IMG/VR virus record: IMGVR_UViG_2778261676_000009
Strand: one strand, 5' to 3'
Source: a virus
Taxonomy: Duplodnaviria > Heunggongvirae > Uroviricota > Caudoviricetes
DNA length: 5,263 nucleotides
Below the pieces are notes generated by a model, which did not search any database, was not told where the DNA came from, and was given only the letters and a program-made list of their open reading frames with translations. The translations under genes and the position numbers were made by a program. This document shows positions 429-5,263 of this stretch, piece after piece (within the stretch, counting starts at the first letter, position 1; the number at the start of each line of letters is the position of its first letter).

Positions 429-491
429 ATGAAGGGAGATTCTATCGATGTGGTCAATGGAAGACGGTGACCAGGGATAGGGCTTATGCAT

Positions 492-518
492 AAAAAATAA
501 GCCCGTGTAAGGGAGATT
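492..518. other. Candidate P2-type attachment-site core (attL junction): AAAAAATAAGCCCGTGTAAGGGAGATT
   Basis: The 27-nt string lies about 80 bp beyond the 3' end of int, where the P2 att core is expected, since int is transcribed toward att. It matches my recollection of the P2 core, but that recollection may be contaminated by reading the sequence. A composition shift from AT-rich host-like flank to phage DNA occurs here. Exact core boundaries are not verifiable without the other junction (attR) or an empty-site sequence. Confidence 0.45.
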
Positions 519-597
519 TAGGGTGTCACCAGTAGGGGCTTTCAACGGTACAATGCGGGTTTGAGCGGCATAAATTACCACTGAAAGCCCTTAAACG

Positions 598-1611
598 TTA
601 CTCTACTGTGGACACTGTGTGGACACTCTCGGCCTCAGTACCACCTCTTAGCGGATTAAGAGAAATGGCGTCCTGAAGGTACTCTGGCGCAAAATGAGCG
701 TAAACCATAGTTTGCTCAATCCGCGTGTGACCTAGTATCCGTTGTAGCGTGATAATACTTCCTCCATTAATCATGAAATGAGTGGCAAAGCTGTGCCTTA
801 GTGCATGTGTGGCTTGCCCCATTGGCAAATCCGGTTTTATTGCTTTCATTGTTCGTCTGAAGCGAGGGTAATCAGCATCAGGGAATAAAAAACCTCGTTT
901 GTTATCCGCGATCATTTTGGCAACAGCCTCTGAGATCGGGACGGTGCGTGGTTTGTTTGTTTTCGTTTTAACAAACGTGACGCGGTTATGGATGATATTT
1001 TCTGCTTTCAAACGAGCTGCTTCTCCCCAACGTGCTCCAGTACTCAGGCAAAGAATCGCAATCTTTTTGTTGTCGCCGTCAAGAGCAGCAAGCAGTAAGG
1101 CAATTTCTTCCTGCGTGAGATAGCCTGTGTCTGGTTTTTCCTCCTTAAGCCTTTTTGTCCCTCTGATAGGGTGCTCACCAAAGAATAACTCCGCTTCAAT
1201 CAGGGCTGTAAACATGCCGCTAATACATGTTAAATCACGATTGATACTCGAAGGTTTAATACCCTGACTTCTTCGGGTGGCGCAGTACTGGCTGATAAGC
1301 GATTTCGTAATTTGAAATGCGCATGGGTCATTCGTTATTTTTGTGAAGATTTCAATTTTTCCAAGATTAGATTTCCCATGCTCTTCGTGTTTACCCTTTA
1401 AATCCCACCAGATCTGTGTCAGCTCCGACAGACGTCGCTTGTCTGTTGGTTTTGATAGCCATTCTTTATTGTGGTGGTTGTACAACGTGTATTTCTCGAA
1501 AGCGACAGCTTCGCTTTTCTTATCAAACTTCCTACGGATGCGTTTTCCATTACGTCCAGTAGGGCGGATGTCCACTTCATATCGACCATCATCGAGTTTT
1601 TTGATTGCCAT
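598..1611 (-). CDS. int: P2-type tyrosine integrase (site-specific recombinase), 337 aa, apparently intact
   Basis: 337-aa ORF, the length of P2 Int. C-terminal catalytic signature of tyrosine recombinases is present (TGARWGEA arginine; HALRHSF His-x-x-Arg; LGHTRIEQTMVYAHF with the catalytic Tyr). Strong SD (GGAGGG, about 8 nt spacer) upstream of the ATG on the minus strand around 1617-1622. Positioned next to the att core and downstream of the C repressor gene, as in P2. Confidence 0.95.
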   Translation of the reverse strand: MAIKKLDDGRYEVDIRPTGRNGKRIRRKFDKKSEAVAFEKYTLYNHHNKEWLSKPTDKRRLSELTQIWWDLKGKHEEHGKSNLGKIEIFTKITNDPCAFQITKSLISQYCATRRSQGIKPSSINRDLTCISGMFTALIEAELFFGEHPIRGTKRLKEEKPDTGYLTQEEIALLLAALDGDNKKIAILCLSTGARWGEAARLKAENIIHNRVTFVKTKTNKPRTVPISEAVAKMIADNKRGFLFPDADYPRFRRTMKAIKPDLPMGQATHALRHSFATHFMINGGSIITLQRILGHTRIEQTMVYAHFAPEYLQDAISLNPLRGGTEAESVHTVSTVE

Positions 1612-1664
1612 CAGAAAACCCTCCGAGTGGTGTGTTTTTTTGCGACTACTAATCGCTTTTTTCG

Positions 1665-1687
1665 TGGTGGCTGAAATTTAGCCACCA
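1665..1687. repeat. 8-bp perfect stem (TGGTGGCT / AGCCACCA) with 7-nt loop in the C-int intergenic region
   Basis: Read directly from sequence. Lies within the presumably cotranscribed C-int leader on the minus strand. The T-run precedes the stem on the + strand and an A-run follows it on the minus strand, so it is not a canonical terminator in either direction. Confidence 0.4.
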
Positions 1688-1704
1688 ATAGTAGGCACTT
1701 GTGA

Positions 1705-1716
1705 TGAATATATTCA
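1705..1716. repeat. 12-bp perfect palindrome TGAATATATTCA immediately downstream of the C stop codon, flanked by a GATGAAT direct repeat (1703-1709 and 1718-1724)
   Basis: Read directly from sequence; AT-rich dyad typical of a protein-binding site. Function unknown. Confidence 0.4.
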
Positions 1717-1726
1717 CGATGAATTG

Positions 1727-2026
1727 TTAACCAGTCTTTTGACCGGAGTGGGGCGACGTTGTTTCGTTTTGCCCAAAGTGTGCGAGAGCGGGCGCAATTT
1801 GCCCGGACTCAGGAGCGATCTGATTGGTCATGAACCATAAAGTGTATTTGGTGAATTGTGGGGTCTGCAGGATGTTCATCATGACATCTGTTGGAGGTGT
1901 TGAACGACCACTTTCATAGTAACTCAGCGTGCCATACGGAACCCCTGTTAAATCAGCAAGTTGTTGTCTGCTCAAATACTCTGATTTTCGCATTAAGACT
2001 ATCTTCTCGCTTATCGTGTTTGACAT
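1727..2026 (-). CDS. C: P2 C-type immunity repressor, 99 aa, apparently intact
   Basis: 99-aa ORF, the length of P2 C. N-terminal helix-turn-helix-like segment (LSRQQLADLTGVPYGTLSYYESG). Located upstream of int on the same strand and directly abutting a promoter/operator region with direct-repeat operators, as in the P2 immunity region. Confidence 0.9.
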   Translation of the reverse strand: MSNTISEKIVLMRKSEYLSRQQLADLTGVPYGTLSYYESGRSTPPTDVMMNILQTPQFTKYTLWFMTNQIAPESGQIAPALAHFGQNETTSPHSGQKTG

Positions 2027-2059
2027 GGTGTTTAGATCTCAATAGTATTTAGTTTAGAT
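2020..2059 (+). promoter_or_regulatory. Candidate early promoter Pe (rightward) with two direct-repeat operator half-sites
   Basis: -35 TTGACA at 2020-2025 (overlapping the C start codon on the other strand), 17-bp spacer, -10 TAGTAT at 2043-2048. Direct repeats TTTAGAT at 2031-2037 and 2053-2059 are exactly 22 bp apart and flank the -10, matching the known P2 arrangement of C operators O1/O2 as direct repeats around the Pe -10. Confidence 0.6.
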
Positions 2060-2091
2060 GTAGATTATTTAGTGCTTGGATGTGGGCACTA

Positions 2092-2126
2092 AAAGGCATT
2101 ATAAGACATTAAACGCAATTCATGAG
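2092..2126 (-). promoter_or_regulatory. Candidate repressor promoter Pc (leftward), face-to-face with Pe
   Basis: Perfect TATAAT on the minus strand at 2103-2098. No good -35 at 16-18 bp spacing (best is CTCATG/TCATGA at about 2120-2126). Predicted start near 2091 would give roughly 35 nt overlap with a Pe transcript, consistent with the convergent P2 switch. The -35 region may coincide with a deletion junction. Confidence 0.35.
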
Positions 2127-2527
2127 GGCTAACGTCTTTTGCCTTGAGCACCATTGCGGTTTTCATTTCCGGTGTGTAGCGGATATCGCGCGCGGCGGGA
2201 TAGAACGAGCGCACGAGCTGGAACACGCCGACACCGAGGCCGGTGGCATCAATACCGATGTATTCGACGTTGTATTTTTCGGTGAGTTTGCGGATGGATT
2301 CCGCCTGAGTGGCAAAGTCCATGCCTTTCCACTGGTGACGCTCAAGTATTCTGAATTTGCCACCGGCCACCACCGGCGGTGCCAGTACCACGCATCCGGC
2401 GCTGTCGCCACGGTGTGACGGGTCGTAACCAATCCATACCGGACGTGAGCCGAACGGATTGGCGGCAAACGGCGCATAGTCTTCCCATTCTTCCAGCGTG
2501 TCGACCATGCAGCGTTGCAGCTCCTCA
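2092..2527 (-). pseudogene. Internal fragment of a phage terminase large subunit (N-terminal part of the RNase H-like nuclease domain); both ends missing
   Basis: Minus-strand ORF 2089-2574 contains two motifs typical of terminase nuclease domains: VWIGYDPSHRGDSAGCVVLA (hydrophobic strand, Asp, small residues) and YIGIDATGLGVGVFQL. There is no ATPase/Walker region upstream and only about 45 residues after the second motif, so it is a fragment. Boundaries are approximate: the last roughly 10-20 codons probably read through into the Pc/Pe region, and the first roughly 15 codons overlap the next fragment. Strand matches the leftward P gene of P2 prophages. Confidence 0.55.
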
Positions 2528-2823
2528 ACCGGTGTTAAACCGCGTATTCTTGGTGTGCCGGGGCTGGATACCAAAGAGGTGGCTGTTGCACTGGCATCAG
2601 TCTGTCAGAAGCTGCGCGCTTTCGGATATATCAGCGCATGGGGCTGTAAAACCATTTCCGAGGTGAAAGCCTACCGCCAGAATTTCAGCCAGCGTGAGCT
2701 GATGGTCATCTGGCCGGATTTCCTCGCATGGGATACGGTCACCAGTACCACCGCCACCGCGTATGCCACCGCCCGTGCGCTGGGTCTGCGTGCCAAAATC
2801 GACCAAGAGCAGGGCTGGCATAA
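2528..2823 (+). pseudogene. Internal fragment of a phage structural protein (possibly tail sheath FI-like); no credible start, ends at an out-of-frame junction
   Basis: Frame-2 reading gives protein-like sequence (PRILGVPGLDTKEVAVALASVCQKLRAFGYISAWGCKTISEVKAYRQNFSQRELMVIWPDFLAWDTVTSTTATAYATARALGLRAKIDQEQGWHKTL) with balanced composition, unlike the His/Arg-rich junk in the other overlapping frames. The frame is interrupted relative to the downstream T frame (TAA at 2821-2823 in frame 1). The sheath assignment is a weak recollection only. Confidence 0.4.
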
Positions 2824-3606
2824 AACGCTGTCCAACGTCGGGGTATCACCGGCATTAATGCCATCATCGCGGCAGCAGGCGCAATGGGTGCAATCTTCAC
2901 GACGGTTGGCAGTGCCGTTATGACGGCCATCGGGGCGATTAGCTGGCCGGTTGTGGCTGTGGTGGCCGCCATTGTCGCCGGGGCGTTGCTTATCCGTAAA
3001 TACTGGGAGCCTGTCAGCGCATTCTTTGGCGGTGTGGTTGAAGGGCTGAAAGCGGCATTTGCGCCGGTGAGGGAGCTGTTCACGCCACTGAAACCGGTGT
3101 TTGACTGGCTGGGCGAAAAGTTACAGGCCGCGTGGCAGTGGTTTAAAAATCTGATTGCCCCGGTTAAAGCCACACAGGACACCCTGAACCGTTGCCGTGA
3201 CACGGGGGTCATGTTCGGGCAGGCACTGGCTGACGCGCTGATGCTGCCGCTTAATGCGTTCAACAAACTGCGCAGCGGTATTGACTGGGTACTGGAAAAA
3301 CTCGGGGTTATCAACAAAGAGTCAGACACACTTGACCAGACCGCCGCCAGAACTCATGCCGCCACGTATGGCACCGGTGGTTATATTCCGGCGACCAGCT
3401 CTTATGCAGGTTATCAGGCTTATCAGCCGGTTACGGCACCGGCTGGCCGCTCTTATGTGGACCAGAGTAAAAACGAATATCACATCAGCCTGACGGGTGG
3501 TACTGCGCCGGGGACACAGCTTGACCGCCAGTTACAGGATGCGCTCGAAAAATACGAGCGGGATAAACGTGCGCGCGCCCGTGCCAGCATGATGCATGAC
3601 GGTTAA
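2824..3606 (+). pseudogene. T: C-terminal about 260 codons of the tail tape measure protein (gpT); 5' two-thirds of the gene deleted
   Basis: Frame 1 is open from the TAA at 2821-2823 to the TAA at 3604-3606. It has a Gly/Ala-rich hydrophobic segment (GAIFTTVGSAVMTAIGAISWPVVAVVAAIVAGALLI) typical of tape measure proteins, and sits immediately upstream of U and D as in P2 (T-U-D). Full-length P2 T is about 815 aa, so only the C-terminal third remains. First in-frame ATG is at 2884. Confidence 0.75.
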
Positions 3607-3611
3607 GGAGG
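3605..3611 (+). promoter_or_regulatory. Ribosome-binding site (AAGGAGG) for gene U
   Basis: Consensus Shine-Dalgarno 9 nt upstream of the ATG at 3621, overlapping the T stop codon. Confidence 0.7.
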
Positions 3612-3620
3612 TGACGAAAA

Positions 3621-4100
3621 ATGATGCTCGCGTTAGGTATGTTTGTTTTTATGCGCCAGACGCTGCCACACCAGACCATGCAGCGTGAATCAGATTATCG
3701 CTGGCCGTCAAATTCCCGTATCGGCAAACGGGATGCCTTTCAATTTCTCGGTGTGGGTGAGGAAAACATCACGCTTGCCGGTGTGCTTTATCCCGAACTG
3801 ACCGGCGGCAAGCTGACGATGGCCACGCTCAGGCTGATGGCAGAGGAAGGCCGGGCGTGGCCGTTGCTGGATGGCACCGGCATGATTTACGGCATGTATG
3901 TCATCAGCAGGGTGAGTGAAACAGGGAGTATTTTCTTTGCAGACGGCACACCCCGGAAAATTGATTTTACGCTGTCGCTCACCCGCGTTGATGAATCACT
4001 GGCCGCGCTTTATGGCGATATCGGTAAACAGGCGGAATCGCTCATCGGTAAGGCTGGCAGTATGGCGACTAAATTCACGGATATGACGGGGGCGGGATAA
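3621..4100 (+). CDS. U: P2-type tail protein gpU, 159 aa, apparently intact
   Basis: 159-aa ORF with a strong SD, matching the length and position of P2 gpU between T and D. Stop TAA 4098-4100 overlaps the D start (TAATG), indicating translational coupling. Confidence 0.9.
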   Translation: MMLALGMFVFMRQTLPHQTMQRESDYRWPSNSRIGKRDAFQFLGVGEENITLAGVLYPELTGGKLTMATLRLMAEEGRAWPLLDGTGMIYGMYVISRVSETGSIFFADGTPRKIDFTLSLTRVDESLAALYGDIGKQAESLIGKAGSMATKFTDMTGAG

Positions 4101-5263
4101 TGCTGGATGCACTGACATTTGATGCAGGCAGTACGCTGACGCCGGATTACATGCTGATGCTCGACAGCAGGGATATTACCGGCAATATCAGCGACCGTCT
4201 GATGAGCATGACCCTGACGGATAACCGGGGCTTTGAGGCTGACCAGCTTGATATTGAACTGAACGATGCCGACGGGCAGGTCGGGCTGCCGGTTCGTGGC
4301 GCTGTCCTGACGGTGTATATCGGCTGGAAAGGTTTTGCCCTGGTATGCAAAGGGAAATTTACCGTTGATGAGATTGAACACCGGGGCGCACCGGATGTGG
4401 TCACCATCCGCGCCCGGAGTGCAGATTTTCGCGGGACGCTCAATTCCCGCCGTGAAGGCTCCTGGCATGACACCACGCTCGGTGCGATTGTTGAGGCGAT
4501 AGCCTCCCGTAACAGGCTGGAAGCCAGTGTCGCTCCGTCACTGGCCGGAATTAAAATCCCGCACATCGACCAGTCGCAGGAGTCAGATGCGAAATTCCTG
4601 ACCCGTCTTGCTGAACGCAACGGCGGTGAGGTGTCGGTAAAAATGGGAAAACTGTTGTTTCTCAAAGCGGGGCAGGGGGTGACGGCCAGCGGTAAAAAAA
4701 TCCCGCAGATTACCATCACCCGCAGCGACGGCGACCGTCATCATTTTGCGATTGCTGACCGTGGAGCCTATACCGGCGTAACGGCAAAGTGGCTTCACAC
4801 CAAAGACCCGAAGCCGCAAAAGCAGAAGGTAAAACTGAAACGCAAAAAGAAAGAGAAACACCTGCGCGCACTGGAACACCCGAAAGCGAAACCGGTCAGG
4901 CAGAAGAAAGCGCCTAAAGTACCGGAAGCGCGTGAAGGTGAATACATGGCCGGTGAGGCTGACAACGTTTTTGCCCTGACCACGGTATATGCCACGAAAG
5001 CGCAGGCCATGCGCGCCGCTCAGGCGAAGTGGGATAAGCTGCAACGGGGCGTTGCGGAGTTCTCCATCAGTCTGGCTACCGGTCGTGCTGATATTTACAC
5101 GGAAACACCGGTTAAAGTGTCAGGCTTTAAGCGCGTCATAGACGAGCAGGACTGGACAATCACTAAGGTGACACATTTTCTGAATAATAGCGGCTTCACG
5201 ACGTCCTTGGAGCTTGAGGTCAGGCTTTCTGATGTGGAGTACGAAACAGAAGATGATGAGTGA
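4100..5263 (+). CDS. D: P2-type tail protein gpD (Phage_GPD family, baseplate hub-like), 387 aa, apparently intact
   Basis: 387-aa ORF, the length of P2 gpD, immediately after U with the ATG overlapping the U stop. Ends TGA 5261-5263 at the window edge. Contains a highly basic Lys-rich segment (residues about 235-277). In P2 the next gene downstream would be ogr, outside this window. Confidence 0.9.
   Translation: MLDALTFDAGSTLTPDYMLMLDSRDITGNISDRLMSMTLTDNRGFEADQLDIELNDADGQVGLPVRGAVLTVYIGWKGFALVCKGKFTVDEIEHRGAPDVVTIRARSADFRGTLNSRREGSWHDTTLGAIVEAIASRNRLEASVAPSLAGIKIPHIDQSQESDAKFLTRLAERNGGEVSVKMGKLLFLKAGQGVTASGKKIPQITITRSDGDRHHFAIADRGAYTGVTAKWLHTKDPKPQKQKVKLKRKKKEKHLRALEHPKAKPVRQKKAPKVPEAREGEYMAGEADNVFALTTVYATKAQAMRAAQAKWDKLQRGVAEFSISLATGRADIYTETPVKVSGFKRVIDEQDWTITKVTHFLNNSGFTTSLELEVRLSDVEYETEDDE

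Follow-up and report, generated by a model that had tools for sequence, protein, structure and literature searches.

The segment spanning positions 2020–2130 of the analysed window, a 5,263-nt stretch of DNA from the IMG/VR record IMGVR_UViG_2778261676_000009 assigned to Caudoviricetes, is, as judged from its near-complete match to the P2 record, the immunity-class-I developmental switch of coliphage P2, in which the promoter Pe with its operator half-sites O1 and O2 faces the weaker promoter Pc. The switch lies in a remnant that has lost cox and the other genes transcribed from Pe. It probably persists in a stable state in which C is on and Pe is off, so that the cell would enjoy class-I immunity, Pe would be silent, and the T fragment, U and D would be carried along as passengers. 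This is a known system residing in a defective prophage, and its predicted behaviour is expected biology that calls for no new mechanism.

A P2 prophage reduced by three internal deletions

From left to right, the window contains yegR, int (minus strand), a gene for a 99-aa HTH protein (minus strand), a short AT-rich spacer, several fragments of phage structural genes, and full-length U and D. A search of the window against phage records retrieved P2 and its nearest relatives at 98% identity, with the matches falling in separate pieces. Direct BLAST comparison with the P2 genome (AF063097) yielded four collinear blocks, with neighbouring blocks overlapping by a few bases at the joints:

Block 1, window 491–2131: P2 24355–25995; att core, int, C and the switch; 99.5% identity
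Block 2, window 2127–2532: P2 1451–1856; inside the terminase gene P, on the opposite strand; 98.0% identity
Block 3, window 2527–2844: P2 18032–18349; inside the tail-sheath gene FI; 96.2% identity
Block 4, window 2841–5263: P2 21532–23954; 3′ part of T, U and D; 97.0% identity

Three internal deletions, numbered here in prophage order and with little or no microhomology at the joints, removed P2 25996–33593 plus 1–1450, 1857–18031 and 18350–21531. The first deletion eliminated cox, B, A, tin, old, cos, Q and part of P (the 3′ part), the second took the rest of P through most late genes into FI, and the third extends from the remainder of FI through most of T. The genes for lytic growth are gone, including those for replication, the capsid, lysis, the baseplate, the fibre and most of the tail. 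All four Ogr-dependent late promoters also lie within the deleted intervals (PP/PO at P2 3016–3127, PV at 10239–10308 and PF at 17555–17628). Because both P2 defence hotspots, old/tin and fun(Z), were deleted, C is the sole anti-phage function left in the element. Outside the switch, the following features were mapped:

1–333: yegR, host gene to the left of the remnant
491–517: attL core, the left boundary of the remnant (P2 attP core 24356–24382; P2 homology begins at 491)
598–1611, minus strand: int, intact, 337 aa, with one change relative to P2 Int (E161D)
2132–2527, minus strand: internal fragment of the terminase gene P (P2 1451–1856), with Pfam Terminase_6C on the called ORF; antisense to Pe
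2528–2840, plus strand: internal fragment of FI, tail sheath (P2 18032–18349), out of frame with the following T fragment
2841–3606, plus strand: 3′ part of T, tape measure (P2 21532–22297), whose sole open frame is a 240-aa ORF from the ATG at 2884
3621–4100, plus strand: U, full length, with 3 amino-acid differences from P2 gpU
4100–5263, plus strand: D, full length, with 4 amino-acid differences from P2 gpD

The element is flanked by yegS-yegR on the left and by ogr-yegQ on the right. The yegR/yegQ site is the P2 attachment site locI. In one copy of the remnant, at locus L009, D is followed by ogr (encoding a protein identical to P2 Ogr), a rho-independent terminator and the attR core, and the att core is accordingly present at both ends of the same remnant. 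Thus, the element lies between yegR and yegQ, is bounded by att core repeats and has lost its lytic genes, as is characteristic of defective P2-like prophages. Read from its map against P2, it is a P2 prophage cut down by three illegitimate deletions to int-C-switch / P′ / FI′ / T′-U-D-ogr. An Rfam scan of the whole window yielded no RNA family above threshold.

Several features of the remnant outside the switch deserve mention. In L009, ogr and the terminator (8462–8720) survive even though the remnant keeps no late promoter, and an incoming P2, or P4, could still respond to the Ogr that it encodes. Both cores, attL and attR, persist alongside the counterparts of the Cox and Int arm-binding sites annotated in P2 attP (window 491–632 and L009 8781–8808). 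With the cores, the arm sites and int present and only Cox missing, the remnant might be excised if Cox were supplied in trans by a superinfecting P2-like phage. Furthermore, seven of the eight differences from P2 within 491–2131 are concentrated in 90 bp of int (1039–1129), where their sole effect on the protein is E161D. This cluster looks like a small recombination patch derived from another P2-like integrase allele.

The C repressor and the Pe–Pc switch

The switch features were transferred from the base-level annotation in the P2 record AF063097:

1727–2026, minus strand: C immunity repressor, 99 aa; DNA and protein identical to P2 C
2020–2025, plus strand: Pe −35, TTGACA (P2 25884–25889), overlapping the C start codon (2024–2026, minus strand)
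2030–2037, plus strand: operator half-site O1, GTTTAGAT (P2 25894–25901), within the Pe spacer
2043–2048, plus strand: Pe −10, TAGTAT (P2 25907–25912); predicted start near 2055
2052–2059, plus strand: operator half-site O2, GTTTAGAT (P2 25916–25923), over the predicted Pe start
2067, unstranded: A in the window, G in P2; the sole difference in the C gene and switch, located near +13 relative to Pe and within the C mRNA 5′ leader
2098–2103, minus strand: Pc −10, TATAAT (P2 25962–25967); predicted start near 2091
2118–2123, minus strand: Pc −35, ATGAAT (P2 25982–25987), a poor match consistent with a weak promoter
2131–2132, unstranded: deletion joint J1, connecting P2 25995 to P2 1451; near −41 relative to Pc

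Over the entire stretch 1612–2131, a single base, at 2067, differs from P2. The C protein matches the solved structures of P2 C (PDB 2xcj and 2l49) over residues 1–99 (E = 6e-64), and the called product carries the Pfam domain HTH_3. Within an immunity class, C proteins of the P2 family are at least 95% identical (PMC3448106). In a promoter scan, Pe (TTGACA, 17-bp spacer, TAGTAT) scored 10 of 12 consensus matches and was one of only two promoter-like sites in 1600–5263, the other being located at 4074–4101 on the plus strand. The start of one half-site lies 22 bp from that of the other, and 200 dinucleotide-preserving shuffles never produced the pair. For P2 itself, GTTTAGAT has been established as the C half-site, with a spacing of 22 nt and a requirement for both half-sites (PMC1904263). 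Pe and Pc are convergent, with a predicted transcript overlap of ~37 nt. In P2, Pc is weak, and its transcript is detectable solely when Pe is inactivated (PMC1904263).

Taken together, the window contains, at the sequence level, C itself, a half-site pair around the Pe −10, a Pe −35 that overlaps the C start and a convergent Pc, all of which characterize the class-I switch. The cox gene, which completes the class-I C/Cox switch, is missing, and the window hence holds a truncated, one-repressor derivative. An earlier, sequence-only reading of this DNA had described a full-length C, a near-consensus Pe and direct repeats 22 bp apart flanking Pe. The first two descriptions are borne out: the 99-aa ORF is identical to P2 C and matches both structures end to end, and the proposed Pe is where that reading placed it and equals the annotated P2 promoter. 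As for the repeats, their spacing and location were right, but they are 8 bp long and flank the −10 hexamer only, O1 being inside the promoter spacer and O2 over the start.

The annotated Pc −35 is separated from the −10 by just 14 bp, a spacing shorter than sigma-70 promoters usually have. The real −35 contact may sit a few bases further upstream, still in retained DNA and nearer to the joint. A further occurrence of the Pe operator was found in E. coli CM2 (L088 2501–2556; NZ_CP114891.1 578534–578589), which carries an isolated, perfect 56-bp copy of P2 25873–25928, comprising the Pe −35, O1, the −10 and O2. This copy adjoins a large gene for a Dam-family methyltransferase, and the country field of the record reads 'not applicable'; the arrangement looks engineered using the P2 operator.

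The joint upstream of Pc and the substitution at 2067

The match to P2 stops at 2131 (P2 25995), 9 bp short of the ATG of cox, which has thus lost its ribosome-binding site and start codon, while both Pc hexamers are kept. The DNA upstream of about −41 of Pc is now an inverted internal fragment of gene P, and this replacement may affect the strength of Pc in either direction, as a loss or as a gain. By comparison, the cox start is present in all 67 usable IMG/VR contigs that carry this switch.

In P2, the C footprint runs downstream of O2 to about +16 of Pe (PMC1904263), and position 2067 accordingly falls inside the footprinted region as well as in the leader of the C mRNA. The A allele at this position occurs in none of the IMG/VR contigs, whereas the G allele is found in 69. 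Nine other positions of the same ~110-bp region vary among IMG/VR contigs of phages that still have cox and are presumably functional. A single change such as that at 2067 appears unremarkable, since its neighbours vary too. We considered this substitution as a sign of altered regulation and drew no such conclusion: it is private to the lineage described below, yet nine nearby positions vary among the phages.

Variation among the 67 contigs (L019–L087) of class-I phages includes two common polymorphisms near Pc, namely, position 2106 (A in 38, G in 29) and position 2131 (A in 43, G in 24). In addition, O1 is altered at its first base in one contig, and the Pe −10 reads TGGTAT in two.

Predicted state of the switch and immunity

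In the proposed scheme, Pc would transcribe C and int leftward, and C dimers would bind cooperatively at the two half-sites on either side of the Pe −10, thereby shutting off Pe. In P2, exit from lysogeny follows a fall of C beneath a threshold, upon which Pe fires and Pc is repressed by Cox. Given that cox, which encodes the repressor of Pc, is deleted, the cassette should be unable to flip and would rest with C on and Pe off. Pe would then be essentially silent. In line with this scheme, when a C-Pe-Pc fragment was placed upstream of cat, CAT was undetectable (PMC1904268). Lacking a late promoter, T′, U and D would be untranscribed or barely transcribed passengers undergoing neutral decay.

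Superinfection by P2-like phages that share the immunity class of the remnant would be blocked, whereas heteroimmune or operator-virulent phages would meet no immunity. This prediction is based on the identity of C with P2 C, on the retention of the core hexamers of Pc and on the observation that plasmid-borne C alone prevents P2 plaques in a non-lysogen, whereas heteroimmune phages are not covered (PMC2995052). The E antirepressor of P4 binds C (PMC2995052), and P4 could therefore still neutralize C in the remnant. Whereas the sequence identity, the map, the joints and the distribution were observed directly, it is by deduction from the identity to P2 and from the P2 literature that the remnant probably expresses C, represses Pe and confers immunity.

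If C is expressed, strains of this lineage would resist a P2 immunity class that is present, together with cox, in ~7% of complete E. coli genomes, with consequences for phage typing, for the range of hosts open to P2-like phages and for P4-type satellites, which depend on a P2 helper. By recombination, a superinfecting heteroimmune P2-like phage could also acquire the immunity region, still intact, together with int, the att sites and ogr, for all of which the remnant is a reservoir.

Distribution of the remnant

The remnant is absent from all 5426 complete RefSeq E. coli genomes, and an exact scan of GTDB species representatives for the joint J1 retrieved no match. By contrast, exact look-up of two remnant-specific ORFs found them in draft assemblies, sequencing runs and one metagenome scaffold, with the J1-spanning ORF present on 21 contigs. 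The sequenced copies are 99.8–100% identical to the window and represent one near-clonal E. coli lineage. The coding changes that have arisen within this lineage are R12C and A68V in U, an 8-bp frameshift in U, A9S in D and A2T in Int, none of them synonymous. The variants lie at window positions 1608, 3654, 3823, 3878–3885 and 4124 and were seen in loci L014/L091, L017, L093 and L009/L089/L094. The changes in U and D look like neutral decay, the numbers being small. C and the switch show 0 changes versus 0.8 expected, which is not a significant difference. Given this, and the near-clonality of the lineage, we rejected the conservation of C as evidence for selection.

Other locI remnants have retained C in different settings. 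In GPEC1292, C, the switch and nine codons of cox are joined to U′; in FDN-24, the stretch from C through orf81 is joined to FI′ and D′; and in Br_178, a heteroimmune C is followed by IS1. The elements L010 and FG92-1 were considered as less-deleted ancestors of the remnant and dismissed, because the bases joined in their P′/T′ and P′/FI′ fusions differ from those in the window, which marks them as independent deletions.

Independent deletions from P to FI or from P to T recur in P2 remnants at attachment sites near fieF, pflB and yegQ, every joint being at a different base (window 2132–2844; L005 5400–6049; L006 5049–5285; L010 5898–5958; L007 7178–7189). The T-side endpoint in L010 is ~15 bp from that of the window. 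Such recurrence may reflect either repeated selection against the capsid/lysis/tail block or a deletion-prone stretch of T.

Alternative fates of the switch

Conceivably, the switch is only apparently intact, with either the new DNA upstream of −41 of Pc or the substitution at 2067 crippling C, in which case Pe would be constitutive, producing antisense or junk RNA, and immunity would be lost. The intrinsic weakness of Pc, the strong effect of flanking phage sequences on promoter activity in the related phage W-phi and the confinement of 2067A to this lineage, against the P2 allele in 69 IMG/VR contigs, are compatible with such damage. However, the Pc hexamers, the C leader and the C ORF are unchanged except at 2067, cox-bearing phage contigs differ from one another at several other sites of this 110-bp stretch, which shows that single changes are tolerated there, and cloned C-Pe-Pc fragments establish repression unaided (PMC1904268). 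We consider a crippled switch very unlikely. An unlikely, albeit less far-fetched, possibility is that int, C and the switch have been domesticated, selection having preserved them as a minimal immunity cassette that cannot be induced. At least three further, independently deleted locI remnants, the above-mentioned GPEC1292, FDN-24 and Br_178, keep int and C, and this immunity class, accompanied by cox, is present in ~401 of 5426 complete E. coli genomes, so that phages of the class are common enough to exert pressure; the deletion of old/tin and fun(Z), which makes C the only remaining anti-phage function, points in the same direction. Against this, class-I C without cox occurs in at most about 5 of ~406 complete genomes, this remnant being in none of them, and the lineage is near-clonal, with the lack of changes in C and the switch non-significant. 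As far as is known, locI is most often occupied by the K-12-type remnant, from which int and C have been lost. Selection for the retention of C is thus possible though improbable, and the reading of a switch simply preserved in its C-on/Pe-off state remains the preferred one.

Transcription downstream of Pe is the subject of two further proposals. The sequence-only reading had suggested that U and D, deprived of PF by the deletion, are transcribed by readthrough from Pe under C control. Much of what it built on is correct: cox, B and A are gone, with P2 homology ending 9 bp before the cox ATG, and PF was indeed lost, along with the other three Ogr-dependent late promoters. Its course for the Pe transcript, antisense into the terminase fragment and then in the sense direction toward the T fragment, U and D, is right as to directions but missed the FI fragment (2528–2840) between P′ and T′. 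Pe does point toward U and D, no intrinsic terminator is predicted between 2055 and 3621, and the scan of 1600–5263 yielded no alternative promoter that could serve U or D, given that the site at 4074–4101 (plus strand) ends just past the D start codon. Residual activity of Pe could therefore, in principle, reach U and D. Nevertheless, C-Pe-Pc-cat constructs of the same layout gave an undetectable reporter signal (PMC1904268), and without Cox, Pc cannot be switched off, leaving the switch stuck in its repressed state. Moreover, the ~1.5 kb preceding U consists of antisense P′, out-of-frame FI′ and truncated T′, and the first ATG of the Pe transcript (2122) has no Shine-Dalgarno sequence. Because this leading part of the transcript would be mostly untranslated, Rho-dependent polarity or termination is to be expected. 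A GC-skew profile, tried as a predictor of Rho sites, shows modest C-over-G stretches at 2320–2440, 2480–2560 and 2720–2800 that are not decisive, and we discarded it. U is frameshifted in one sublineage, the point changes in U and D are all nonsynonymous, and other locI remnants are cut into U or D. We know of no role for gpU or gpD without the remaining tail. As a steady state, expression of T′-U-D (and ogr) from Pe under C control is thus highly improbable, and readthrough would be possible only upon inactivation of C. Scarcely any credence can be given to an elaboration of this idea, in which the Cox-less C-Pe-Pc would be a selected one-state immunity device, with Pe firing only when C is neutralized (for example, by P4 E) and reading T′-U-D into ogr, thereby coupling satellite infection to Ogr.

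Comparison with known systems

The closest relative of the system described here is the class-I switch of P2 itself (AF063097), with which the window shares the DNA and protein sequence of C, the hexamers of Pe, O1 and O2 with their 22-bp spacing, the hexamers of Pc and the convergent layout. It differs in the lack of Cox and of all genes transcribed from Pe, in the change at 2067 and in the foreign DNA upstream of −41 of Pc. Defective P2-like prophages have been described for many years. The K-12 locI remnant (yegZ/ogrK) occupies the same attachment site and likewise decayed by internal deletion; it has lost int and C, whereas the window keeps a class-I C. A precedent for the retention of a working immunity region is provided by the defective P2-like prophage of E. 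coli B, which donated the immunity region of P2 Hy dis. That element is of a different immunity class and retains cox (H125), unlike the window, with its class-I C and no cox.

Defective prophages of K-12 offer a functional analogy, in that the repressors DicA/DicC of Qin and RacR of Rac still silence an adjacent early promoter. However, these repressors belong to different protein families and follow a different operator logic from the small HTH dimer acting on direct repeats in the window. They also silence retained toxic genes, so that loss of the repressor is harmful, whereas no known toxic gene lies downstream of Pe in the remnant. A further parallel is with the C-Pe-Pc-cat constructs in pKK232-8, in which cat is promoterless (PMC1904268) and which likewise combine C, Pc and Pe with no cox and with unrelated DNA downstream of Pe. 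In these constructs, C supplied by its own promoter brings the activity of Pe below detection (PMC1904268), although they reside on a multicopy plasmid, as opposed to the single chromosomal copy in the window. The understanding of the P2 switch is unchanged by the remnant, which represents a natural counterpart of a construct already studied on plasmids.
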